Source: a virus (taxonomy: Duplodnaviria; Heunggongvirae; Uroviricota; Caudoviricetes). From it: a stretch of 11,875 nt of DNA. The stretch lies in the IMG/VR virus record IMGVR_UViG_2698536366_000007; one strand, 5' to 3'. Both the position numbers and the translations under genes were made by a program. The notes under the pieces are model-generated. The model ran no database searches. It was not told where the DNA came from and worked only from the letters and a program-made list of their open reading frames with translations. This document shows positions 1-11,761 of this stretch, piece by piece. How positions within the stretch are numbered: the stretch's first letter is position 1; the number at the start of each line of letters is the position of its first letter.

Positions 1-51
1 CTGCTTAAAAAAAGAACAAATGGTAGTGTCCGCTATTGCCAGTACACCTCA
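1..51 (+). mobile_element. IS600 (IS3 family) terminal 51 bp including the inverted repeat; the element body lies upstream of the window
   Basis: Reverse complement of 1-51 matches 8686-8736, the end of the complete IS600 copy, and ends in CCTCA; bases 6-8 TAA correspond to the orfB stop. Confidence 0.8.
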
Positions 52-250
52 TCCATCACCGAAAAAAATTGGCTTTTACACCATTGGCGATAAAAGCATT
101 TACCTGTATGACCTACGCCGCATGGATGAAATCATGGAGGCTCTTGATAATCGTTCGTCGATGGATTGGTGTGTTGCTGTTCATGATATGAATGCAGGGT
201 TTGATGAAAAGATTTTGTTCCCCTCATCAGTTGAAAGCACTGCGGGTTAA
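52..250 (+). pseudogene. 3' remnant of a phage gene truncated by the upstream IS600 (about 65 C-terminal codons, stop at 248-250)
   Basis: The open frame runs straight out of the IS600 end, so the ATG at 20 listed in the ORF track lies inside IS sequence; the downstream translation looks protein-like. Family not recognised. Confidence 0.4.
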
Positions 251-260
251 GGAGTAACAC

Positions 261-428
261 ATGACCACTATTACCAAAGAACGTATTGAATTGTTCATTA
301 AAAACCCGCTTGAAAACGGGCTTACCCGTGGTGAACAAATGGAACTGGCACGGATTGCGCTGGCATCGCTGGAAGCAGAGCCGGTTGTGTTCTGGTTTGA
401 AAAATATCAAGAAGGGGCTACGGCATGA
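261..428 (+). CDS. hypothetical small phage protein (55 aa)
   Basis: ATG at 261 preceded by AGGAG at 250-254; stop TGA 426-428 overlaps the next start (ATGA); shares the MTT(I/F)T(K/R)E N-terminus and the IAL-SL-AEP motif with the following ORF. Confidence 0.5.
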
Positions 429-769
429 CGACTTTTACCAGAGAGCAGTTAATAGCTCACGCAGAGGAGACTATTGAAGCACAGAGACTGTGCATACCGG
501 GCACAATCGACCATGACATCATCCGCACATATAAGATGGATATTGCTGTTCTGGAAATCGCACTGGTATCGCTGGCAGCAGAGCCAGCCGGTAAATTGCA
601 TGAATACAAACCAGTGGGATATCAGCGTCTGGTCGATGAGTTAACCATGCTGGTAAAGCAGTTAACCTGGCAACTGAGGAAAGCGAAGCCAGACTGCAAA
701 TTACCGGATAAGGCGATGAGTTATCTGGAGCGGAACGGACTGATAAGCGTGGAGGATATTTTACGATGA
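425..769 (+). CDS. hypothetical phage protein (114 aa), paralogous to the preceding 55-aa ORF
   Basis: ORF track; ATGA overlap with the upstream ORF and with the downstream 27-aa ORF; shared motifs with the 261-428 product. Confidence 0.55.
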
Positions 770-849
770 CCTGGCCTGAAGCATTAACAACGGTAGGAAT
801 TGCGATGGCGGTGGCGCTGGTGGTGTATTCGATTTGCCGCTGGGGATAA
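766..849 (+). CDS. small hydrophobic peptide (27 aa, [27 protein letters not shown]), predicted single transmembrane helix
   Basis: ATG 766 overlaps the upstream stop (ATGA); strong SD GGAGGA at 751-756 with 9-nt spacing; stop TAA 847-849. Below the ORF-track size cutoff. Confidence 0.45.
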
Positions 850-1003
850 AAACGGTTTGCGGGAAAAGGAGAGTTAAGTAGAATTGCAGCGGGTGCTTGA
901 GGCTATCTGTCTCAGGCATGAACACCAAAAGGCAGATAGAGAAAAGCCCCAGTTAACATTACGCGTCCGGCAAGACGCTTAACATTAATCTGAGGCTCAA
1001 TCT

Positions 1004-1216
1004 ATGAACGGCAAATCTAGGTTAGCCTCTTACGTGCCGAAAGGCAAGGAGAAGCAGGCTATGAAGCAGCAAAAGGCGATGTTAATCGCCCTGATCGTCA
1101 TCTGTTTAACCGTCATAGTGACGGCACTGGTAACGAGGAAAGACCTCTGCGAGGTACGAATTCGAACCGGCCAGACGGAGGTCGCTGTCTTCACAGCTTA
1201 CGAACCTGAGGAGTAA
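1004..1216 (+). CDS. hokD: Hok/Gef family type I toxin with in-frame mok-like N-terminal extension; core hok reading frame 1061-1216 (51 aa)
   Basis: Core translation MKQQKAMLIALIVICLTVIVTALVTRKDLCEVRIRTGQTEVAVFTAYEPEE matches, from memory, the HokD/RelF toxin; the leader carries hok-mRNA-like elements (GCTTGAGGC at 896-904; AGCCTCTTAC...GCAAGGAGAAG immediately before the ATG). Confidence 0.8.
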   Translation: MNGKSRLASYVPKGKEKQAMKQQKAMLIALIVICLTVIVTALVTRKDLCEVRIRTGQTEVAVFTAYEPEE

Positions 1217-1286
1217 GAGACCAGGCGGGGGAGAAATCCCTCGCCACCTCTGATGGGTCAGGCATCCTCAATGCACCCACACTTAA

Positions 1287-1311
1287 CCCGCTTCGGCGGG
1301 TTTTTGTTTTT
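1287..1311 (+). terminator. rho-independent terminator of the hok transcript
   Basis: Stem CCCGC / GCGGG with UUCG tetraloop (1287-1300) followed by TTTTTGTTTTT. Confidence 0.65.
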
Positions 1312-1436
1312 ATTTTCAACGCGTTTGAAGTTTTAGATGGTGCCGGAATAGAATCAAAAATACTTAAGTAGCGCGCAGGGAGAAGAGGGATGGACCCCGA
1401 ACAGGGGAGTGCTATTTATCTGGAAGGATTCTGTTG

Positions 1437-1718
1437 ATGAAAATCGAAGAATTACGTGAAATTTTTAGTGAAGATGGCCTCTATACTGTGCGCGTTGAGA
1501 ATGGCGCTATTGTCAGCCACTGCCTTCCAGACTACACAATTCTGATAATTCAGCCGTCTTTGCCAGCAGGCACGGGCGGCGCTCTCACGCATTTAAATCT
1601 GATTGGTACCAGCATCCCCCATGCACTGAAGAACAGGCCGAATGGCTCATTCAGTGTTACCGCAGGCGCGGATGCGAGGTTAAAAAAGCCCTTAGCCTCG
1701 ACTACCGTCACTGGATAA
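1437..1718 (+). CDS. hypothetical small protein, probably frameshifted (possible pseudogene); the protein-like C-terminus continues in another frame to 1792
   Basis: ATG 1437 (track start 1434 is TTG) with SD GGAAGGA at 1423-1429; downstream of the C5 run at 1616-1620 a different frame stays open to TAA 1790-1792 and reads protein-like, while the annotated frame becomes low-complexity. Confidence 0.4.
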   Translation: MKIEELREIFSEDGLYTVRVENGAIVSHCLPDYTILIIQPSLPAGTGGALTHLNLIGTSIPHALKNRPNGSFSVTAGADARLKKPLASTTVTG

Positions 1719-1793
1719 TCTCCGTCAGGCTCCCTTACTCCGAACGGCCAACGCGTCCGTCCCGCACATTCCAGCAACGGATCTGGAGGTAAT

Positions 1794-2852
1794 GTGCGGG
1801 TATTACTTCGACCTGTTCTGGTACCGGAACTCGGTCTGGTTATCGTTAAGCCAGGCCGTGAATCAATGTCAGCATTCCATAACGGCAGAATACTGGTGGA
1901 GCCGGAACCAAAAAGCATGCGTAATCTGCCGTCCGGGGTCGTTCCTGCCGCTCGCCAGCCGCTGGTGGAAGACAAAACATTGCTGCCGTTTTTCAGTAAC
2001 GCACGGGTGATTCGTGCTGCTGGTGGTGCTGGTGCATTGTCTGACTGGCTGTTGCGCCATATTAAATCCTGCCAGTGGCCACACGGCGATTATCATCACA
2101 GCGAAACCGTCATTCACCGTTATGGTACCGGCGCAATGGTGTTGTGCTGGCACTGCGACAACCAGCTGCGTGACCAGACATCCGAATCACTCGAGCAACT
2201 TGCTCATCAAAACCTGTCAGCATGGATGATTGACGTCATCGGTCACGCAATAAGCGGTACGCAGGAGCGTGAATTATCTCTGGCTGAATTATCCTGGTGG
2301 GCGGTCCGCAATCAGGTGGCGGACGCGCTACCGGAAGCGGTATTACGTCGTTCGCTGGGGTTGCGTGCGGAAAAAATTCGCTCTGTGTACAGTGAAAGCG
2401 ACATCATACCGGGAGAGCAGACAGCCACCAGCATACTGAAGCAGCGCACAAAAAATATTGCGTTACTGCCTCACGTCCACCAGCAACAGAACCCACCACA
2501 GGAAAAGACGGTGGTCAGCATTGCCGTTGATCCGGAGTCACCGGCTCAGTATCTCCAGCGCCAGAAATCACAACGGGAAGAGATGCCTGTATACACGCGC
2601 TGGGTAAAAACGCAGAAATGCATGACGTGTGGCAATCAGGCAGATGATCCGCATCACATCATTGGTCATGGACTGGGAGGGATGGGAACAAAGGCTGATG
2701 ATTTGTTTGTTATTCCGTTATGCCGTAAATGCCGTAACGAACTACATGCCGGAGTAAAAGATTTTGAAGAGAAACACGGCAGTCAGCTGTTGTTGCTGAT
2801 TCGTTTTTTAATGCACGCGAGAAATTCGGGTGTTCTGAAGTGGAAAGCATAA
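1794..2852 (+). CDS. DUF968-like prophage protein with C-terminal HNH/zinc-finger-like Cys/His cluster (YdfU-like)
   Basis: 352-aa ORF; C-terminal CMTCGNQADDPHHIIGHG...CRKCRNELH pattern; GTG start at 1794 after GGAGG (1785-1789); alternative ATG start at 1866 (MSAFHNG...). Confidence 0.75.
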   Translation: MRVLLRPVLVPELGLVIVKPGRESMSAFHNGRILVEPEPKSMRNLPSGVVPAARQPLVEDKTLLPFFSNARVIRAAGGAGALSDWLLRHIKSCQWPHGDYHHSETVIHRYGTGAMVLCWHCDNQLRDQTSESLEQLAHQNLSAWMIDVIGHAISGTQERELSLAELSWWAVRNQVADALPEAVLRRSLGLRAEKIRSVYSESDIIPGEQTATSILKQRTKNIALLPHVHQQQNPPQEKTVVSIAVDPESPAQYLQRQKSQREEMPVYTRWVKTQKCMTCGNQADDPHHIIGHGLGGMGTKADDLFVIPLCRKCRNELHAGVKDFEEKHGSQLLLLIRFLMHARNSGVLKWKA

Positions 2853-3233
2853 ATGACCGAGCGCATAGAATTTGTTTTACCTTACCCGCCGACGGTGAAC
2901 ACTTACTGGCGTCGTCGTGGCAGCACATATTTTGTATCAAAAGCCGGGGAGCGTTATCGCCGGGCAGTGGCGCTTATTGTTCGCCAGCAGCGGCTGAAAT
3001 TAAGCCTGTCCGGAAGGTTGGCAATAAAAATTATTGCAGAACCACCGGATAAGCGCCGCCGTGACCTGGACAATATTCTGAAAGCGCCGCTGGATGCGCT
3101 GACGCATGCGGGGTTGCTAATGGACGATGAGCAGTTTGATGAAATCAATATCGTTCGTGGTCAGCCAGTATCTGGTGGACGTCTGGGGGTGAAGATTTAT
3201 CCCATAATGCTTGAAGGGCAGGTCAAAAAATGA
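2853..3233 (+). CDS. rusA: RusA-like Holliday junction resolvase
   Basis: 126 aa with the RRRDLDN acidic motif and overall similarity to E. coli RusA; ATG immediately follows the upstream stop. Confidence 0.8.
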   Translation: MTERIEFVLPYPPTVNTYWRRRGSTYFVSKAGERYRRAVALIVRQQRLKLSLSGRLAIKIIAEPPDKRRRDLDNILKAPLDALTHAGLLMDDEQFDEINIVRGQPVSGGRLGVKIYPIMLEGQVKK

Positions 3234-4051
3234 AACTGGAAGATTTACCGAAATACTACTCCCCAAAATCCCCCGGCCTGACTGATGCATCGGCCTCAAC
3301 GTCGAAAGATGCGCTGAGTATCACTGATGTGATGGCCGCGCAGGGCATGACACAGAATCGGGCTGAGATGGGGGTTTCTGCGTTCCTTGGGAAAATGGGC
3401 ATTAGTATGAATGACAGAGAGCGGGCAACAGAATTGCTGACAGAATATGCACTCAGTCGGTGTGATCGCGTGGCGGCGTTAAGAAAACTCCCGGCAGAAA
3501 TAAAACCGGCAGTGATGCGTATTATGGCTTCGTATGCGTTTGAAGATTATGCCCGTAGCGCGGCGAGCAAAAAACAGTGCCCCTGCTGTCACGGAAAAAA
3601 ATTTATTGAAAGCGAGGTTTTTACAAACAAGATCCAGTATCCGGATGGTAAGCCGCCGGTATGGGCAAAGTGTACGAAAGGTGTGTATCCGTCTTACTGG
3701 GAAGAATGGAAAAAAGTCAGGGAGGTGGTAAAAGTTGCCTGTCCGGAGTGTGGCGGAAAGGGTGAGGTTTCCACCGCCTGTAAGGATTGCCGTGGGCGTG
3801 GTGTCGCCATTCATCGTGAAGAGTCGGTAAAACGTGGTATGCCTGTTATCAGAGACTGCCAGCGTTGTGGTGGTCGTGGCTATGAAAGACTACCATCAAC
3901 GGAGGCATTTAATGCTATATGCGAGGTGACAAACCAGATAACACGCGCGTCATGGGAAAAAACAGTTAAGAAATTTTATGATGCGCTGGTGACCCGGTTT
4001 GATATTGAAGAAGCATGGGCTGAGCGGCAGTTAAAAAAGGTAACTAGGTAA
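3230..4051 (+). CDS. Q: late-gene antitermination protein Q (phage 82/Qin type, zinc-binding)
   Basis: 273 aa; several CxxC pairs (CPCCHGKK, CPECGGKG, CKDCRGRG, CQRCGGRG); ATGA overlap with rusA; immediately followed by a PR'-like promoter and terminator. Confidence 0.8.
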   Translation: MKLEDLPKYYSPKSPGLTDASASTSKDALSITDVMAAQGMTQNRAEMGVSAFLGKMGISMNDRERATELLTEYALSRCDRVAALRKLPAEIKPAVMRIMASYAFEDYARSAASKKQCPCCHGKKFIESEVFTNKIQYPDGKPPVWAKCTKGVYPSYWEEWKKVREVVKVACPECGGKGEVSTACKDCRGRGVAIHREESVKRGMPVIRDCQRCGGRGYERLPSTEAFNAICEVTNQITRASWEKTVKKFYDALVTRFDIEEAWAERQLKKVTR

Positions 4052-4056
4052 CAAGG

Positions 4057-4084
4057 TTGATTTTTCCGGAATCTGTGGTAAATT
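4057..4084 (+). promoter_or_regulatory. candidate late promoter PR' (with qut region) downstream of Q
   Basis: -35 TTGATT (4057-4062), 16-bp spacer, extended -10 TGgTAAATT (4076-4084). Confidence 0.5.
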
Positions 4085-4133
4085 CGTCATAACGATGGGC
4101 GTTTTATGCCTGACGTTAGAAGAGTTTCTACAA

Positions 4134-4155
4134 CCCGCCGCCGAGCGGGTTTTTT
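4134..4155 (+). terminator. tR'-like intrinsic terminator
   Basis: CCCGC-cgccga-GCGGG stem-loop followed by TTTTTT, about 50 nt downstream of the PR' -10. Confidence 0.7.
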
Positions 4156-4275
4156 ATGACTGAAATCGCGTCAGTACAGTAAACGCGCTGGTGGCGGTGA
4201 ATACCTGTCTTTCAGCTTGCTGGCTTTTTCGACAAGAGTTATTGGTGTGTCACGTTAACCGGAAAAGGAAAAGAC

Positions 4276-4473
4276 ATGCTAAAACAGCAGGATATGACAG
4301 AAACCGCCAGAGTGGTGTTTAATGAATTAAGCGTTACCGAACCGGCGACAGTCGGGGAGATAGCGCAGAATACTTACCTTTCACGCGAACGCTGCCAGTT
4401 AATACTGACCCAGCTGGTTATGGCGGGTCTGGCAGACTATCAGTTCGGTTGTTACAGACGCCTTCCGCAGTGA
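4276..4473 (+). CDS. small hypothetical protein (65 aa), possible winged-helix DNA-binding protein
   Basis: ATG 4276 preceded by AAGGAAAAG; helix-turn-helix-like segment VGEIAQNTYLSRERCQLILTQL. Confidence 0.5.
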   Translation: MLKQQDMTETARVVFNELSVTEPATVGEIAQNTYLSRERCQLILTQLVMAGLADYQFGCYRRLPQ

Positions 4474-4484
4474 AGGCTTTTTTA
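4460..4484 (+). terminator. intrinsic terminator overlapping the stop of the 65-aa ORF
   Basis: Stem GCCTTC / GAAGGC with 6-nt loop followed by TTTTTTAT. Confidence 0.55.
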
Positions 4485-4500
4485 TTTGTGGTAAATGGGC

Positions 4501-4531
4501 GGCTGGTGGGTGTTAGGGGCACCCACCAGCC
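4501..4531. repeat. perfect 12-bp inverted repeat (GGCTGGTGGGTG ...7 nt... CACCCACCAGCC)
   Basis: Exact reverse-complement arms read directly from the sequence, between the 65-aa ORF and the methyltransferase. Confidence 0.8.
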
Positions 4532-4623
4532 ATCTGCTCATGCGTTGGGTTCACAAGCAAACCTCAGGCCCACTGCTTTGCGCAAAAGCAGAATGAGCCT
4601 ATCAGAGACAGGCTTAATGATCC

Positions 4624-5682
4624 ATGCTTAATACTGTAAAAATATCCAGTTGTGAGTTAATCAACGCCGACTGCCTGGAATTTATCCGGTCGTTACCCGA
4701 AAATTCTGTTGACCTGATAGTCACGGACCCGCCGTACTTTAAAGTGAAGCCTGAGGGCTGGGATAACCAGTGGAAGGGCGACGATGATTACCTGAAGTGG
4801 CTGGACCAGTGTCTGGCGCAGTTCTGGCGGGTGCTGAAACCTGCCGGAAGTCTTTACCTGTTCTGTGGTCATCGCCTGGCATCTGATATCGAAATCATGA
4901 TGCGTGAACGCTTCAGTGTGCTGAACCATATTATCTGGGCGAAGCCGTCCGGACGCTGGAACGGATGCAACAAGGAAAGCCTGCGGGCGTATTTCCCCGC
5001 CACAGAGCGCATTCTGTTCGCGGAACATTATCAGGGGCCGTATCGTCCGAAAGATGCCGGGTATGCGGCGAAGGGCAGTGCACTGAAACAGCATGTGATG
5101 GCCCCGCTGATTTCTTACTTTCGTGATGCGCGAGCTGCCCTGGGGATAACGGCAAAACAGATTGCAGATGCCACAGGAAAGAAAAACATGGTGTCGCACT
5201 GGTTCAGTGCCGGTCAGTGGCAGTTGCCGAATGAAAGCGATTATCTGAAATTACAGGCGCTGTTTGCCCGGGTGGCAGAAGAGAAGCATCGGCGTGGTGA
5301 ACTGGAAAAGCTCCACCACCAGCTGGTGGATACGTATACCTCACTGAACCGGCAGTATGCGGAGCTGCTGAGTGAATATAAACATCTGCGGCGGTATTTT
5401 GGCGTGACGGTGCAGGTGCCGTATACCGATGTGTGGACGCATAAACCGGTGCAGTTCTATCCCGGGAAACATCCGTGCGAAAAACCGGCAGAAATGCTGC
5501 AGCAGATAATCAGCGCTAGCAGTCGTCCGGGTGACCTGATTGCAGATTTTTTCATGGGGTTGGGTTCGACAGTGAAAGCGGCACTGGCGCTCGGGCGTCG
5601 TGCAATTGGCGTTGAGCTGGAGACTGAACGTTTTGAGCAGACGGTTCGGGAAGTACAGGATTTAGTCAGCCAGAACGGATGA
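4624..5682 (+). CDS. DNA methyltransferase, beta-class amino-MTase (N6-adenine or N4-cytosine), phage-borne and apparently orphan
   Basis: 352 aa; N-terminal DPPY motif (VDLIVTDPPY) and C-terminal FxGxG AdoMet motif (FFMGLGST); no restriction endonuclease partner seen in the window. Confidence 0.85.
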   Translation: MLNTVKISSCELINADCLEFIRSLPENSVDLIVTDPPYFKVKPEGWDNQWKGDDDYLKWLDQCLAQFWRVLKPAGSLYLFCGHRLASDIEIMMRERFSVLNHIIWAKPSGRWNGCNKESLRAYFPATERILFAEHYQGPYRPKDAGYAAKGSALKQHVMAPLISYFRDARAALGITAKQIADATGKKNMVSHWFSAGQWQLPNESDYLKLQALFARVAEEKHRRGELEKLHHQLVDTYTSLNRQYAELLSEYKHLRRYFGVTVQVPYTDVWTHKPVQFYPGKHPCEKPAEMLQQIISASSRPGDLIADFFMGLGSTVKAALALGRRAIGVELETERFEQTVREVQDLVSQNG

Positions 5683-5722
5683 TATTGAAGAATTAATTAC
5701 GCGTCGTTATTATGCGGCTCCC

Positions 5723-5798
5723 GGCCCTTTAGCTCAGTGGTGAGAGCGAGCGACTCATAATCGCCAGGTCGCTGGTTCAAATCCAGCAAGGGCCACCA
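5723..5798 (+). tRNA. ileZ: tRNA-Ile (anticodon CAU, ileX-like minor isoleucine tRNA), copy A
   Basis: Cloverleaf by eye: acceptor GGCCCTT/AAGGGCC, anticodon loop CTCATAA, T-arm GCTGG-TTCAAAT-CCAGC, encoded CCA; close to E. coli ileX. Confidence 0.85.
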
Positions 5799-5805
5799 TC
5801 ACATA

Positions 5806-5882
5806 CCGCCATTAGCTCATCAGGAAAGAGCGCCAGCCTTCGAAGCTGGCTGCGCGGGGTTCAAGTCCCCGATGGCGGTCCA
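5806..5882 (+). tRNA. argN: tRNA-Arg (anticodon UCG), copy A
   Basis: Acceptor CCGCCAT/ATGGCGG, anticodon stem CCAGC/GCTGG with loop CTTCGAA, T-arm CGGGG-TTCAAGT-CCCCG, encoded CCA. Confidence 0.75.
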
Positions 5883-5895
5883 TTATCTGCATCAT

Positions 5896-5972
5896 GCGTT
5901 GTTAGCTCAGCCGGACAGAGCAATTGCCTTCTAAGCAATCGGTCACTGGTTCGAATCCAGTACAACGCGCCA
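5896..5972 (+). tRNA. argO: tRNA-Arg (anticodon UCU), copy A
   Basis: Acceptor GCGTTGT/ACAACGC, anticodon stem ATTGC/GCAAT with loop CTTCTAA, T-arm ACTGG-TTCGAAT-CCAGT, encoded CCA. Confidence 0.85.
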
Positions 5973-5986
5973 CACTTATTTTCCCT

Positions 5987-6012
5987 GGCTCGCTTTTGCG
6001 GGCCTTTTTTTT
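5987..6012 (+). terminator. candidate intrinsic terminator after tRNA cluster copy A
   Basis: Imperfect GC stem (GGCtCGC / GCGGGCC) followed by a T8 run. Confidence 0.45.
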
Positions 6013-6416
6013 AAATGTCTCACAATTCAGACGGTTGACAGTTGTCTGTTTTGCGGGGAGTTTGTTAAAAGAAACTGGCATGGTGAATCCCCCTGTGCGG
6101 AGGGGCAATCAGCGAGTAGGTATATGGGATAATCGCGGATTCAGGTGCTGGTACTGAATTCACCGGGAGGCACCCGGCATCATGCAATGGCACATAGCGC
6201 CACTCTCCAGCCCTCTCCGGAGGGGCTTTTCTGTGCCGGATACATCACAGTTTCTGGAACCTTAGGTACTACAGTATCAGTCAGGGTGCTATATTTTCAG
6301 ATGTGATGAAAGCCTGTCAGCAGGCAGGGCGTATCGGAAATGACCCAGTAGAGAAAACGTTGACTCAGATACCGGTGCTGAGTTACCGGGAAACCGGCAT
6401 CACATGACCGCTATCC
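6011..6416 (+). repeat. conserved non-coding element X, copy A (core 6011-6227 shared by all three copies; 6228-6416 shared with copy B only)
   Basis: Near-identical to 8281-8685 and, for the core, to 10923-11130; no convincing ORF; contains TTGACA at 6035-6040 and two GC hairpins sharing CGGAGGGG. Confidence 0.7.
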
Positions 6417-6814
6417 TGAGGTGTACTGGCAATAGCGGACACTACCATTTGTTCTTTTTTTAAGCAGCCATCTGATGATATTTTTCCCTGAAGGCTGCCG
6501 GGGAGATATTCCCCAGACGAGAGTGACGACGCTGACGATTGTAGAAAATCTCAATGTATTCCCGTATTACTGAGATGGCTTCATCCCGGTTATTAAAACG
6601 ATAGTGGCTCAGGCTCTCATTTTTCAGCGTTCCCCAGAAGCTTTCCATCGGAGCGTTGTCGTAACAGTTACCTTTACGCGACATTGATGTTTTCAGACCA
6701 GACTGCTCCTGTATGACCCGGTAATCGTATGCGCAGTACTGTGAACCTCGATCAGAGTGGTGGATTAGCCCGGCAGGTGGGCGCTGGCTCCTGAGCGCCA
6801 TAAACAGGGCTTTA
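6417..6814 (-). mobile_element. IS600 fragment (398 bp from the orfB end, including the terminal inverted repeat)
   Basis: Matches 8686-8083 of the complete copy, then switches abruptly into Q coding sequence at 6815. Confidence 0.85.
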
Positions 6815-7232
6815 TCCAGTATCCGGATGGTAAGCCGCCGGTATGGGCAAAGTGTACGAAAGGTGTGTATCCGTCTTACTGGGAAGAATGGAAAAAAGTC
6901 AGGGAGGTGGTAAAAGTTGCCTGTCCGGAGTGTGGCGGAAAGGGTGAGGTTTCCACCGCCTGTAAGGATTGCCGTGGGCGTGGTGTCGCCATTCATCGTG
7001 AAGAGTCGGTAAAACGTGGTATGCCTGTTATCAGAGACTGCCAGCGTTGTGGTGGTCGTGGCTATGAAAGACTACCATCAACGGAGGCATTTAATGCTAT
7101 ATGCGAGGTGACAAACCAGATAACACGCGCGTCATGGGAAAAAACAGTTAAGAAATTCTATGATGCGCTGGTGACTCGGTTTGATATTGAAGAAGCATGG
7201 GCTGAGCGGCAGTTAAAAAAGGTAACTAGGTT
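6815..7232 (+). pseudogene. 3' fragment of a second Q antiterminator gene (about 139 codons), stop codon lost through a small deletion
   Basis: About 99% identical to 3634-4051, with SNPs and a 6-bp deletion that removes the stop; fused to the IS600 fragment. Confidence 0.8.
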
Positions 7233-7258
7233 GATTTTTCCGGAATCTGTGGTAAATT
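7231..7258 (+). promoter_or_regulatory. second copy of the PR'-like promoter
   Basis: Same -35 TTGATT and extended -10 TGgTAAATT as at 4057-4084. Confidence 0.45.
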
Positions 7259-7307
7259 CGTCATAACTATGGGCGTTTTATGCCTGACGTTAGAAGAGTT
7301 TCTACAA

Positions 7308-7329
7308 CCCGCCGCCGAGCGGGTTTTTT
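7308..7329 (+). terminator. second copy of the tR'-like terminator
   Basis: Same CCCGC-cgccga-GCGGG stem plus T-run as at 4134-4155. Confidence 0.65.
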
Positions 7330-7368
7330 ATTGCGGAATTAATTACGGACCGTTATTATTCTGCTCCC

Positions 7369-7444: not shown

Positions 7445-7451
7445 TCACAAA

Positions 7452-7531
7452 CCGCCATTAGCTTATCAGGAAGAGCAGACGACACGATAACAGGGTTGTT
7501 GGTGCGGGGGCGGGTCCCCGATGGCGGTCCA
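7452..7531 (+). pseudogene. degenerate tRNA-Arg-like sequence (probable tRNA pseudogene), copy B
   Basis: Acceptor and D arms match the copy-A tRNA-Arg(UCG), but the anticodon arm is replaced by unrelated sequence and the T-loop lacks TTCRA. Confidence 0.6.
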
Positions 7532-7544
7532 TTATCGGTATTCA

Positions 7545-7731: not shown

Positions 7732-8085
7732 TTGATTGAGTGTTTGTTATACGGTCTAATGGTTTTTTCAGCATTAAATATTTATCATTCATATGGTGTG
7801 GGTAGAGTGAATATTGATGAGGCGTCGGGGTGTTTCATCCTTAGGCAGCGTATTGATATAGTCAATGCAGCACGAGCAAAGGCCTTCAGCCGTTTGACAG
7901 TTTTGTTCTGTACTCCTGATCGTCTTTCGGGAAGAGACGTTATTATTCTGAATAGTGATGCTATACAGAGGGTTTGCGATGAGTTCATGGTTGCTAATTC
8001 AGAATTATTTGCTCTTGTTCAGGAGTACAACAGAATAGCCAGGACCTGTGGTATGGATGAACTTCGGATTACTCATCTGGGGTAG
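7732..8085 (+). CDS. hypothetical cargo protein (up to 117 aa) in AT-rich DNA, copy 1; start codon uncertain
   Basis: Longest ORF in the post-tRNA slot; track start 7732 is TTG, first in-frame ATG at 7759, in-frame GTGs at 7798 and 7807; no strong SD; no family recognised. Confidence 0.45.
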   Translation: MIECLLYGLMVFSALNIYHSYGVGRVNIDEASGCFILRQRIDIVNAARAKAFSRLTVLFCTPDRLSGRDVIILNSDAIQRVCDEFMVANSELFALVQEYNRIARTCGMDELRITHLG

Positions 8086-8280
8086 ATACATATCTGGATT
8101 ATCACCTGTTACGGTAAAAAGTGATTGCTTACTGTTTTTGTGAATGGCATTGCAGCAGCCGGATAATGTCAGTGCTGGCTGACGGTGTGCTGGTGGCGGG
8201 TGTGGTGGTTGTTGCTTTCCCGTTGCTGAAAAAGAAAACGCCAGACTGTTAGCCGGGTATCAGTTAGCGGGAGAAATTTT

Positions 8281-8685
8281 TAAATACTTCACAATTCAGG
8301 CGGTTGACTGTTGTCTGGTTTGCGGGGAGTTTGTTAAAAGAAACTGGCATGGTGAATCCCCCTGTGCGGAGGGGCAATCAGCGAGTAGGTATATGGGATA
8401 ATCGCGGATTCAGGTGCTGGTACTGAATTCACCGGGAGGCACCCGGCATCATGCAATGGCACATAGCGCCACTCTCCAGCCCTCTCCGGAGGGGCTTTTC
8501 TGTGCCGGATACATCACAGTTTCTGGAACCTTAGGTACTACAGTATCAGTCAGGGTGCTATATTTTCAGATGTGATGAAAGCCTGTCAGCAGGCAGGGCG
8601 TATCGGAAATGACCCAGTAGAGAAAACGTTGACTCAGATACCGGTGCTGAGTTACCGGGAAACCGGCATCACATGACCGCTATCC
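8281..8685 (+). repeat. conserved non-coding element X, copy B
   Basis: Matches 6011-6416 (SNPs in the first 40 bp, identical thereafter up to the IS600 junction). Confidence 0.7.
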
Positions 8686-8728
8686 TGAGGTGTACTGGCA
8701 ATAGCGGACACTACCATTTGTTCTTTTT

Positions 8729-9547
8729 TTAAGCAGCCATCTGATGATATTTTTCCCTGAAGGCTGCCGGGGAGATATTCCCCAGACGAGAGTGACGACG
8801 CTGACGATTGTAGAAAATCTCAATGTATTCCCGTATTACTGAGATGGCTTCATCCCGGTTATTAAAACGATAGTGGCTCAGGCTCTCATTTTTCAGCGTT
8901 CCCCAGAAGCTTTCCATCGGAGCGTTGTCGTAACAGTTACCTTTACGCGACATTGATGTTTTCAGACCAGACTGCTCCTGTATGACCCGGTAATCGTATG
9001 CGCAGTACTGTGAACCTCGATCAGAGTGGTGGATTAGCCCGGCAGGTGGGCGCTGGCTCCTGAGCGCCATAAACAGGGCTTTACCTGTCAGCTCTTTTGT
9101 CATGCGCTCTCCCATGGCGTAGCCGACAATTTCGCACGTATAAACATCTTTGATGCCAGCGAGGTACAACCATCCCTCCTGTGTGGCAACATACGTCAGG
9201 TCCGCCACCCAGACCTGATTTGGTGCTGTAGGAGCGAACGTCTGGTTCAGCAGATTTGGCGCAACTGGCAGATTGTGGTTCGAGTTCGTAGTCGCTCTGA
9301 ACTTGCGTTTCTGCTTACAGCGTAGCCTTAGCTCCTTACGAAGACGTGCCAGTCGGTCACGACCAACGATGATGCCATTCTCTGCCAGCTCCGTCTGGAG
9401 CCGCCGGGTTCCATATGTTTCGCGAGTGCGGATATGTGCCACCTTAATCTCCAGTTTTAGCCGCTCATCACTTTGTTTTCTGTCTGAGGGTTCATGCTGT
9501 ACCCAGTTGTAATAACCGCTCCTGGATACACCAAATACCTGACACAT
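8729..9547 (-). CDS. IS600 transposase OrfB (DDE integrase domain), expressed as an OrfAB fusion by -1 frameshifting
   Basis: 272 aa from the first ATG; IS3-family OrfB sequence; the frame is open upstream into the orfA 3' end. Confidence 0.9.
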   Translation of the reverse strand: MCQVFGVSRSGYYNWVQHEPSDRKQSDERLKLEIKVAHIRTRETYGTRRLQTELAENGIIVGRDRLARLRKELRLRCKQKRKFRATTNSNHNLPVAPNLLNQTFAPTAPNQVWVADLTYVATQEGWLYLAGIKDVYTCEIVGYAMGERMTKELTGKALFMALRSQRPPAGLIHHSDRGSQYCAYDYRVIQEQSGLKTSMSRKGNCYDNAPMESFWGTLKNESLSHYRFNNRDEAISVIREYIEIFYNRQRRHSRLGNISPAAFREKYHQMAA

Positions 9548-9582
9548 CGCTTCAATGGGAAATTGTTGTCGCCATTGTTCGA

Positions 9583-9885
9583 TTAACGCGTATTTTTCAG
9601 CGACTCCTGTGCAAAATACGCTGTTGCTTTTTTTAATATATCTCGCTCAAGGCGAGCTTCATTTAACGCCTTACGCAGTTGCAGAATTTCAGATTCCAGT
9701 TCAGCCACCGTGCGGGAACCAGGAGTACCGAGCCCTTTTCTGGCGGCGGTAACCCATTGTCCTAAAGTGCCTTCAGGAAGAGATAATCGGGAAGCGCCTT
9801 CACTGATCGAAAGTTGATTTTCAAGAACCGTTCTGACAGCTTCGGCTTTGAACTCTTTAGAGTAACGTTGGGTTTTTCTGCTCAT
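9583..9885 (-). CDS. IS600 transposase OrfA (helix-turn-helix / leucine zipper)
   Basis: 100 aa; A AAA AAG slippery heptamer on the coding strand (plus-strand T7 run at 9628-9634) near its 3' end. Confidence 0.9.
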   Translation of the reverse strand: MSRKTQRYSKEFKAEAVRTVLENQLSISEGASRLSLPEGTLGQWVTAARKGLGTPGSRTVAELESEILQLRKALNEARLERDILKKATAYFAQESLKNTR

Positions 9886-10001
9886 TATTAGCTCCTTCTG
9901 ATGCCATTCTATTTCAGGAAGGAGTGTCCGTTAAACTCAGGCTACCTCAAGGGTGGTTTTTTATTGCGGAATTAATTACGGACCGTTATTATTCTGCTCC
10001 C

Positions 10002-10077: not shown

Positions 10078-10084
10078 TCACAAA

Positions 10085-10164
10085 CCGCCATTAGCTTATC
10101 AGGAAGAGCAGACGACACGATAACAGGGTTGTTGGTGCGGGGGCGGGTCCCCGATGGCGGTCCA
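10085..10164 (+). pseudogene. degenerate tRNA-Arg-like sequence, copy C
   Basis: Identical to 7452-7531. Confidence 0.6.
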
Positions 10165-10177
10165 TTATCGGTATTCA

Positions 10178-10364: not shown

Positions 10365-10718
10365 TTGATTGAGTGTTTGTTATACGGTCTAATGGTTTTT
10401 TCAGCATTAAATATTTATCATTCATATGGTGTGGGTAGAGTGAATATTGATGAGGCGTCGGGGTGTTTCATCCTTAGGCAGCGTATTGATATAGTCAATG
10501 CAGCACGAGCAAAGGCCTTCAGCCGTTTGACAGTTTTGTTCTGTACTCCTGATCGTCTTTCGGGAAGAGACGTTATTATTCTGAATAGTGATGCTATACA
10601 GAGGGTTTGCGATGAGTTCATGGTTGCTAATTCAGAATTATTTGCTCTTGTTCAGGAGTACAACAGAATAGCCAGGACCTGTGGTATGGATGAACTTCGG
10701 ATTACTCATCTGGGGTAG
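10365..10718 (+). CDS. hypothetical cargo protein (up to 117 aa), copy 2
   Basis: Identical to 7732-8085. Confidence 0.45.
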   Translation: MIECLLYGLMVFSALNIYHSYGVGRVNIDEASGCFILRQRIDIVNAARAKAFSRLTVLFCTPDRLSGRDVIILNSDAIQRVCDEFMVANSELFALVQEYNRIARTCGMDELRITHLG

Positions 10719-10922
10719 ATACATATCTGGATTATCACCTGTTACGGTAAAAAGTGATTGCTTACTGTTTTTGTGAATGGCATTGCAGCAGCCGGATAAT
10801 GTCAGTGCTGGCTGACGGTGTGCTGGTGGCGGGTGTGGTGGTTGTTGCTTTCCCGTTGCTGAAAAAGAAAACGCCAGACTGTTAGCCGGGTATCAGTTAG
10901 CGGGAGAAATTTTTAAATACTT

Positions 10923-11130
10923 CACAATTCAGGCGGTTGACTGTTGTCTGGTTTGCGGGGAGTTTGTTAAAAGAAACTGGCATGGTGAATCCCCCTGTGC
11001 GGAGGGGCAATCAGCGAGTAGGTATATGGGATAATCGCGGATTCAGGTGCTGGTACTGAATTCACCGGGAGGCACCCGGCACCATGCAATGGCACATAGC
11101 GCCACTCTCCAGCCCCTCTCCGGAGGGGCT
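10923..11130 (+). repeat. conserved non-coding element X, copy C (core only)
   Basis: Matches the 6011-6227 core with two differences, then diverges into unique AT-rich sequence. Confidence 0.7.
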
Positions 11131-11162
11131 GTTTATATTGATTTTGTCAGATGTGAGTAAAC

Positions 11163-11196
11163 TCCTTATGGACTTTGTTGTTTTAGTCCATAAGGA
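11163..11196. terminator. perfect 12-bp stem hairpin (TCCTTATGGACT ...10 nt... AGTCCATAAGGA), probable terminator for the minus-strand ORF
   Basis: Exact inverted repeat overlapping the stop of the 11166-11501 minus-strand ORF; U-tract is weak on both strands. Confidence 0.5.
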
Positions 11197-11501: not shown

Positions 11502-11761
11502 TTAGTTTCCTTGTTTATGCCTTGCTGGTGATGTTCTGAAAAGTATAAATGATATTTTTGAATGTAAACCATAGAGCAGAATTATTTTTCTGATGTTGTT
11601 TATTGTTTATTTAAATGCAGGGTGGTTTATATCTCGTCTTGTAGTTTATCCATGCATATCTGCTTGATAATCAGGTTTTTATTTAAGGTATGGTTTTGTG
11701 TTTTTTCTGTATTACATGTCAGGTATTTTAAAGAATTATTTTTCAGATGGTGGAAAGAACC

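Follow-up and report, generated by a model that had tools for sequence, protein, structure and literature searches.

A triplicated non-coding repeat in a lambdoid prophage as a probable gene for the STnc100-family small RNA EcOnc05

What is a non-coding repeat of about 215 bp, present in three nearly identical copies in the late region of a prophage, likely to do? The question is raised by an 11,875-nt stretch of phage DNA (IMG/VR record IMGVR_UViG_2698536366_000007), the whole of which is called the window here; prophage loci that were compared with the window carry L numbers (L001, L002, L129 etc.). The repeat, designated X, had been regarded in a preliminary description, made from the letters alone, either as a small RNA (sRNA) gene or as a promoter or leader of the downstream cargo gene. 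Judged by its sequence, X appears to be a known and already catalogued prophage sRNA gene, a member of the STnc100 family and the same as EcOnc05 of Escherichia coli O157:H7, which was triplicated by a recent rearrangement. No long-standing question is opened by copies of a prophage sRNA gene that is documented to bind Hfq. The main value of the identification is correct annotation, because pipelines either give the 215-bp repeats no feature at all or place a spurious "hypothetical protein" on the minus strand.

Three copies of X and their identity

Self-comparison of the window, followed by alignment, gave three direct copies of the repeat, A, B and C, at 5995-6294, 8264-8563 and 10897-11196. 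The three-copy repeat was thus found as described before, with corrected borders: in the register of copy A (6011-6227) the element occupies 8280-8496 in B, one nucleotide off its earlier placement, and 10913-11130 in C, where the start had been set 10 nt late. A and B differ by six substitutions, all in 6017-6049, and show zero differences after 6050. The unchanged run is 765 nt long (6050-6814 = 8319-9083) and includes the 190-bp extension to the same IS600 junction, which had been noted correctly, as well as 397 nt of IS600 itself. B and C differ by one C/T change (about 8449/11082, in the 3′ arm of helix P1, see below) and by one additional C that copy C has in its terminator stem; upstream of these two copies, a stretch of 959 nt is 100% identical between them. 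Because of this upstream identity and the common IS600 junction of A and B, the near-identity of the three copies is, on the sequence, the product of recent segmental duplication in an IS600-riddled prophage remnant. Similarity among recently duplicated copies says nothing about selection. The retention of X in three copies, offered earlier as an argument for its importance, is therefore invalid, and the evidence that X matters comes from outside the window.

Such evidence was obtained by an Rfam scan at curated thresholds, the check proposed in the preliminary description. All three copies were assigned to RF02076 (STnc100), whose gathering score is 47 bits, with 132.4 bits for C (10951-11140), 123.6 bits for A (6049-6238) and 122.5 bits for B (8318-8507), and each match was full length, covering model positions 1-206 of 206. 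Furthermore, copy C (10922-11130) is base-for-base the sequence 1179716-1179924 of prophage Sp4 in E. coli O157:H7 Sakai, the EcOnc05 locus. The identity runs from TCACAATTCAG through the terminator stem, and over the 218-nt block Sp4 differs from copy C by just three bases, immediately 5′ of TCACAATTCAG. With full-length, above-threshold family matches and the sequence of EcOnc05 in copy C, the sRNA gene reading held.

EcOnc05 was UV-crosslinked to Hfq and detected at ~222 nt on a Northern blot, and its peak in Hfq crosslinking and analysis of cDNA (CRAC) lies at 1179806-1179914 (+) in Sp4 (Tree et al. 2014, PMC4104026 Table S2). This peak corresponds to 11012-11120 in copy C and to 6110-6217 in copy A. 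The Sakai coordinate frame was checked with neighbouring peaks: between record versions the AsxR peak showed a +142 shift at Sp5, and the EcOnc08/21 peaks showed zero shift at Sp4. The published EcOnc05 Northern probe is exactly complementary to 6107-6141, 8376-8410 and 11009-11043 of the window. Copy C represents the canonical allele, the commonest among the IMG/VR loci (u0, 15 loci). Measured against the consensus, A and B have two changes that are derived, a C-to-T in the P1 3′ arm, which leaves a G.U pair, and the loss of one C from the terminator stem; the RNA of copy B is identical to that of copy A.

An STnc100 match was found in 2719 of 5426 complete E. coli genomes, at up to 12 places per genome, and the element occurs in 284 phage records, mostly of Stx2-converting phages. 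In strain EDL933, 11 STnc100 copies were reported as transcribed, and the 191-nt-type copy STnc100_4 was Northern-positive (PMC5331693); from its length, STnc100_4 may be of the X subtype. The quantitative PCR (qPCR) primers published for "STnc_100" in outer-membrane vesicles of Shiga toxin-producing E. coli (STEC) (PMC12370729) match X exactly, with a 93-bp amplicon at 6079-6171; the VT2-Sakai copy next to stx2 is not matched by them. What was quantified in that study may thus be an RNA other than the stx2-linked one discussed by its authors. EcOnc05, the "STnc_100" of the STEC-vesicle qPCR and X are one and the same RNA. A taxonomic survey of genome contigs (596 Gb) with the 15-base core GCATGGTGAATCCNCC was discarded: the core is too short, and the matches listed were chance hits in unrelated phyla.

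Fold and covariation of the 5′ domain

The first 108 nt of the structured part of X form a 5′ domain in which a closing helix, P1, surrounds P2, P2b, P3 and P4 (Table 1). For comparison, 120 prophage loci were gathered from IMG/VR by a core pattern, and our own covariance model (R1) was built from 12 diverse members; a search of 100 sources with it returned 126 hits, representing 53 distinct sequences. Covariation analysis, also suggested in the preliminary description, supported the fold. Across the 53 sequences 96.2% of the cells were paired, against 40-50% with slid 3′ partners, and double (compensatory) changes were seen in 20 of the 29 pairs, including all 8 pairs of P3. The observed pairing and covariation values were reached by none of 500 shuffles. 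These values are to be read with the caveat that the alignment was fitted to the model and that the collecting pattern fixed the P1 5′ arm and much of P2; most independent support therefore comes from P2b, P3 and the divergent paralogs.

Folding of the single alleles was less uniform. The minimum free energy (MFE) structure of the whole RNA of copy C is the family fold, at -69.2 kcal/mol, and the 5′ domain of copy A folded by itself gave exactly the P1-P4 structure. The arms of P2 (6090-6105) and of the terminator (6211-6225) are near-identical (CCCCCU/GGAGGGG and CCCUC/GGAGGGG) and can cross-pair. The earlier remark that both GC-rich hairpins share CGGAGGGG was correct; in copy A it occurs at 6098-6105 and 6218-6225, and B and C have it at the corresponding sites. 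Such cross-pairing is the MFE structure in the mutated A/B allele and not in copy C, and PasD, a related sRNA, has no such arms. A likeness of P1/P4 to tRNA or boxB (5-bp stem, pentaloop) was visual resemblance only and is not claimed.

Table 1. Positions of X, its parts and the truncated paralog X′ in the window
Feature	Position	Strand	Remarks
X copy A, upstream block (promoter(s) or 5′ leader)	6011-6077	+	conserved across X-type loci
X copy A, 5′ structured domain	6078-6185	+	Rfam STnc100 match 6049-6238; own model R1 117.6 bits
P1, copy A	6078-6085/6178-6185	+	
P2, copy A	6090-6094/6101-6105	+	
P2b, copy A	6112-6115/6133-6136	+	short, closes variable insert
P3, copy A	6137-6144/6154-6161	+	
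P4, copy A	6163-6167/6173-6177	+	
X copy A, single-stranded C/U-rich linker	6186-6208	+	AAUGGCACAUAGCGCCACUCUCC; presumed seed region
X copy A, intrinsic terminator	6209-6236	+	stem-loop 6209-6227, then UUUUCUGUG; terminator scan
X copy B	8280-8505	+	block 8280-8346, domain 8347-8454, linker 8455-8477, terminator 8478-8505
X copy C	10913-11141	+	block 10913-10979, domain 10980-11087, linker 11088-11110
X copy C, terminator	stem-loop 11111-11130	+	tail UGUUUAUAUUG
X′ copy A	6287-6416	+	extended -10 TGcTATATT 6287-6295; domain 6301-6405
X′ copy A, P1	6301-6308/6398-6405	+	ATGTGATG/CATCACAT
X′ copy B	8556-8685	+	truncated by full IS600 at 8686-9949

Transcript, 3′ module and competing explanations

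X probably is the gene for a prophage-encoded, Hfq-associated sRNA that belongs to the STnc100 family and is one RNA with EcOnc05. From X a discrete transcript of about 155-215 nt would be produced, and the copies in the window would be expressed in this way. Its 5′ 108 nt, the five-helix domain, would serve as a conserved scaffold stabilising the RNA, and the 3′ module, consisting of linker, terminator and U-tail, would provide Hfq binding and pairing to target mRNA, by analogy with PasD1/2, EcOnc27 and EcOnc05. The action would most likely be Hfq-assisted base pairing in trans through the variable 3′ linker. The linker AAUGGCACAUAGCGCCACUCUCC is 23 nt long and C/U-rich; it stands at the position of the mapped PasD seed and of the PasD chimera sites found by ligation of interacting RNAs followed by sequencing (RIL-seq), it lies in copy A within the EcOnc05 Hfq-CRAC peak, and it is the segment swapped between family members. 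We placed the working seed of X in the linker because the PasD seed (UGUGAG) and the RIL-seq chimeras fall in the 3′ tail of PasD; by this analogy the linker may act as the seed.

The terminator hairpin was calculated at -10.8 kcal/mol in copy A, which has the 1-nt C deletion, versus -17.3 kcal/mol for the intact allele in L001. The short T-run reported after the second hairpin is there, as TTTTCT in A and B and as TGTTTAT in C. As a 3′ Hfq module this region has the terminator hairpin, preceded by a stretch that is C/U-rich, not U-rich, and followed by a tail of 4 U (A/B) or an interrupted tail (C). A second terminator was detected by the terminator scan 5′ of X, at 5987-6012, and X, with terminators on both sides, would be its own transcription unit.

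A sigma-70 consensus scan of 5950-6470 returned no promoter on the plus strand, and the promoter proposals rest on homology to PasD and on published RNA sizes. The upstream block of copy A contains TTAAAT (6011-6016), TCACAATTCAG (6020-6030), TTGACA (6035-6040), TTGTCT (6042-6047) and TAAAAG (6066-6071). The PasD promoter is TTGACT-18-TAAAAA, its positional homolog in X is TTGTCT-18-TAAAAG, and the PasD RNA begins at the first base of P1. By analogy a start from TTGTCT-18-TAAAAG would yield an RNA of ~155 nt. The PasD RNA is 173 nt by RNA-seq and its homolog EcOnc13 ~187 nt on Northern (Tree et al. 2014, PMC4104026), and the Northern sizes of that study run ~8% high. EcOnc27 was seen at ~235/247 nt versus 175 nt counted from P1, and with this size excess allowed for EcOnc05 and EcOnc27 are both ~50 nt longer than expected. 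The excess length therefore suggests a 5′ end near TCACAATTCAG. Such an end would explain the length of the conserved block and would leave TTAAAT as the only -10 candidate, without a conserved -35. The -35-like hexamer that had been pointed out is present (TTGACA in A, TTGACT in B and C) but probably not a working -35, because it stands 25 nt from the sole -10 shared with the PasD promoter; going by the published RNA sizes, it may instead sit within the transcript. A third option, TTGACA-17-GAGTTT, would start near 6070.

Several observations speak against X as an Hfq-associated, trans-acting sRNA of the proposed layout. EcOnc05 at ~222 nt on Northern does not agree with the ~155 nt from P1 to the terminator. 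The A/B allele shows no excess stability over shuffled sequences (z = -0.44), and its MFE structure is an alternative long-range fold with P2 pairing to the terminator, as a result of the two derived changes. The U-tails, UUUUCU in A/B and UGUUUAU in C, are weaker than the classical Hfq-binding module of PasD, and no Rho-independent terminator was flagged for EcOnc05 (Tree et al. 2014, PMC4104026). A literature search gave no target or functional paper for EcOnc05 or for the X-type tail. When the window was searched for complements of the linker, the best duplex reached -27.7 kcal/mol, a value that shuffled linkers also cover (mean -24.5, minimum -29.4). Finally, the putative seed is the variable part and the 5′ domain the conserved part, the reverse of typical trans-acting sRNAs; a conserved 5′ domain with a variable seed hints at an additional function of the domain. 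With regard to the fold, the thermodynamics of A/B says little either way, and covariation is the evidence that counts.

The copies in the window, A and B above all, could be decaying relics that are no longer functional and persist through recent duplication, which we consider unlikely. Segmental duplication accounts for their near-identity, and the following would be in keeping with decay: A and B have the P1 change and the 1-nt deletion, with the terminator falling from -17.3 to -10.8 kcal/mol and an MFE structure that is no longer the family fold, the terminator of the neighbouring paralog X′ was lost to IS600, the second occurrence of Q is a mere fragment joined to a truncated IS600, and in modules B and C the middle tRNA looks degenerate. 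However, copy C is the commonest allele and identical to the expressed EcOnc05, the P1 change of A/B still allows a G.U pair, and cryptic prophages commonly express sRNA genes that have a promoter of their own; PasD and the EcOnc RNAs, for example, are made in uninduced cultures.

Somewhat less likely still, the 5′ domain would be the functional part of X, by protein binding, as a cis processing or stability element on the late transcript, or as a decoy, with the tails secondary. The domain, P4 and the adjoining junction (UCACCGGGAGGCACCCGGCACC) above all, is near-invariant while tails and promoters swap, covariation indicates selection on the fold, GGA motifs, as read from the sequence, stand where loop meets stem in P2, P4 and the terminator, and the Hfq peak of EcOnc05 spans P3 and P4 besides the tail. 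The PasD chimeras, however, fall in the 3′ tail, no partner of the domain is known, P4 is the least conserved helix in X′ and PasD, and a structured 5′ end would be equally expected for simple protection from RNase E.

A role of X in cis, as promoter or leader of the usual downstream cargo gene, the other proposal of the preliminary description, is very improbable. The -35-like TTGACA, several -10-like hexamers and the position in the late operon, 5′ of variable genes, are in keeping with it, but X ends in a terminator of its own and a discrete ~222-nt RNA was seen for the identical sequence (EcOnc05). The gene that follows X in other phages, a question raised earlier, was found to vary in the IMG/VR and Sakai loci: the tail of X is succeeded by an opposite-strand PmrD-family gene, a convergent sRNA or the sRNA paralog X′, each starting just past the terminator stem, and these three unrelated contexts argue against a leader function. 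Least credible of all is a small protein from the 42-amino-acid (aa) minus-strand open reading frame (ORF) at 6065-6193, called a "hypothetical protein" by RefSeq pipelines in many E. coli genomes, with a (pseudo)gene placed on the element by PGAP in E. coli ATCC 11775 and further strains: an ORF occurs in each of the three copies, but, as had been noted, none is plausible, no ORF being conserved across them, the detected RNA is that of the plus strand, and the ORF is ruled out by substitutions that are base-pair-preserving doubles and by homologous domain lengths of 112, 113, 117, 118, 120, 123, 126, 127, 128, 130, 131 and 133 nt, i.e. indels that are not multiples of three.

X as an Hfq-associated sRNA gene belongs to a family of modular build. 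Among 83 distinct sequences one 5′ domain is joined to 11 unrelated clusters of 3′ tails (70% identity), and across the family to two types of upstream block, CACAATTCAG-N-TTGAC-N-GTTG-N-CTG...TTTGTTAAAA in X and EcOnc27 and TTGAYTTTTTT...TTATTAAAAA in the PasD type. Tandem stacks, often of 2-4 paralogs, are common as well, with three genes in L001 (6039-6716) counting X′, three in L188 (2260-2855) and four in L129 (2323-3351). Within one array the sequences of the STnc100-like members are strongly divergent and the fold is kept; one copy in L129 has AUAUGGCG/CGCCAUAU as its P1. It is conceivable, though we hold it unlikely, that the STnc100/EcOnc/PasD superfamily follows a "scaffold plus exchangeable seed" design, in which a near-invariant 5′ domain with a function of its own (e.g. 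binding of a host or phage protein) was grafted by recombination onto at least 11 seed/terminator cassettes and two promoter blocks. If so, lambdoid phages would re-target host regulation by swapping cassettes and not by point mutation of a seed. The cassette-like tails, the tandem arrays and the truncation of X′ by IS600 are modest extensions of published work.

Prophage setting and related sRNAs

X is located in a lambdoid late region, where Q (3230-4051) is followed by tRNA genes, X and, at 11750, DUF1737, which is the location of STnc100 genes. It thus occupies the "moron" slot between Q/pR′/tRNAs/cargo and the lysis genes, a site at which convergent pairs of Hfq-binding sRNAs were reported downstream of pR′ in at least 8 Sakai prophages (Tree et al. 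2014, PMC4104026). Colinear prophages are L001, L002 and L246-L251. L001, a prophage of E. coli ATCC 11775, is colinear with 1-6416 of the window and shows the uninterrupted arrangement, in the order hok/sok, DUF968, RusA, Q, methyltransferase, three tRNAs, X, sRNA-like units, DUF1737 and holin.

The 190-bp continuation of A and B is real up to IS600 and yet no passive flank, as it probably represents a diverged paralog of X, X′, truncated by IS600 (Table 1). The intact homolog in L001 (6268-6441) gave a full-length STnc100 match of 30.1 bits (E 4e-5), below the gathering score. Its fold has z = -2.63 and the helix layout of X, with P1-P4 and a strong terminator: P1 is AUGUGAUG/CAUCACAU, P2 GCCUG-UCAG-CAGGC, P3 GACUCAG/CUGAGU and P4 CCGG-GAAA-CCGG. 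Most differences between two natural alleles of X′ fall in P2 and in the terminator, where in either case the hairpin is kept. The score of 66.8 bits against our own model was not counted, because X′ was in the seed of that model. The extended -10 of X′ is positioned for a start at the first base of P1 (6301), mirroring PasD. IS600 was inserted 11 nt past P1 of X′, at 6417 and at 8686, and the terminator of X′, present in L001 at 6412-6435, is gone; a transcript of X′ would run into IS600 antisense to orfB. The junction between X′ and IS600 was found as here in five IMG/VR loci. X′ would be a widespread paralog, missed by the Rfam threshold and truncated here.

The full IS600 (1264 bp) matches the IS600 copies on Shigella sonnei plasmids at 100% identity, which hints at a possible Shigella-like host. 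It is flanked by the unlike triplets TCC and AGG (8683-8688, 9947-9952), and no target-site duplication is present; recombination between IS600 copies is thereby favoured over simple insertion. The truncated IS600 (6417-6813, the 3′ end of orfB) joins directly to an internal piece of the Q antiterminator gene (6814-7230), which repeats 3632-4050. This fusion is a deletion or recombination junction, at which the Q/pR′/tRNA module restarts, and a chimeric IS600/Q ORF lies across it on the minus strand (6460-6996); a look-up of this ORF returned no recorded match. The window itself starts with an inverted IS600 end (1-51).

A hok/sok type I toxin-antitoxin module is present at 891-1216: the Rfam match to sok (891-1066) scores 112.4 bits, and the mok/hok-like ORF of 70 aa (1004-1216) is colinear with hokD in L001. 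A pR′-like promoter (TTGATT..TAAATT) and a strong terminator (CCCGCCGCCGAGCGGGTTTTTT) stand just 3′ of Q at 4055-4160 and again at 7230-7338; this is the expected late promoter/tR′ pair, duplicated with module B. The middle tRNA-Arg (tcg) of ileZ-argN-argO is intact only in copy A (5806-5882), and ARAGORN detected no tRNA in 7445-7544 (module B) or 10078-10177 (module C), where the interval looks degenerate. The cargo between the tRNAs and X (7732-8252, 10365-10885) consists of a 117-aa ORF without a Pfam match and a 43-aa DUF3927 ORF; the 117-aa protein recurs with identical sequence in public assemblies (487 index blocks), in every case in the slot between Q and lysis. A 111-aa PmrD-family ORF (PF11183; 11166-11501, minus strand) converges on copy C, and the gene starting at 11750 is of the DUF1737/sialate-esterase (nanS-p-like) type.

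Among known systems, EcOnc05 is the nearest to X. In Sp4 it stands directly after the ileZ-argN-argO tRNA genes, as copy A does in the window, but is then followed by the convergent sRNA EcOnc08/21, in place of X′ and IS600 (A, B) or the PmrD-family gene (C); A and B moreover differ from it by the 2 changes within the RNA. With the family RF02076, a gammaproteobacterial sRNA first listed in Salmonella, X has the consensus helices in common, whereas it represents a short-insert subtype (190 nt aligned to the 206-position model) with the deletion between P2 and P3.

EcOnc27/sRNA103, encoded downstream of stx2B in Stx2 phages, is of the STnc100 family too, with 207.7 bits in VT2-Sakai, where it stands back-to-back with the opposite-strand AsxR, at 75 nt downstream of stx2B. 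It binds Hfq, and fimZ and espA transcripts rise when it is overexpressed. It resembles X in the upstream block (CACAATTCAG..TTGACAGTTG.CTG) and in P1, P2, P3 and P4, but the insert between P2 and P3 is another one, the 3′ tail and terminator are unrelated to those of X, and its opposite-strand partner AsxR has no counterpart beside X in the window. The anti-sRNAs AsxR and AgvB (RF02703, RF02702) occupy the same moron slot as X and form convergent dyads with STnc100-type genes in enterohaemorrhagic E. coli; they are encoded on the opposite strand, are 51-60 nt long and unrelated to X in sequence. The Rfam scan gave no AsxR or AgvB match in the window, i.e. there is no convergent dyad here, while L002 and Sakai Sp4 do carry one. 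IpeX of the K-12 prophage DLP12 was dismissed as a relative of X, the Q-to-lysis region of DLP12 being without an STnc100 match.

PasD1 and PasD2 of enteropathogenic E. coli E2348/69 (= EcOnc13) have a 5′ domain homologous to that of X, with 37.7-41.4 bits to RF02076, below the gathering score, and 59 bits to our own covariance model, and they are found in the same slot between Q and the lysis genes. STnc100 was linked to PasD1/2 by structure in a 2026 preprint of the Storz laboratory. PasD1/2 are Hfq-dependent and form RIL-seq chimeras through their 3′ 50 nt (PMC8550237). They differ from X in the promoter block and in the tail, which bears the mapped seed UGUGAG and an 8-U terminator, GGCUGCGCAUGGCGCGGCC. 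The window lacks the PasD probe and seed sequence, and the tail of X belongs to a different cluster; we therefore concluded that X is a relative of PasD and not PasD itself.

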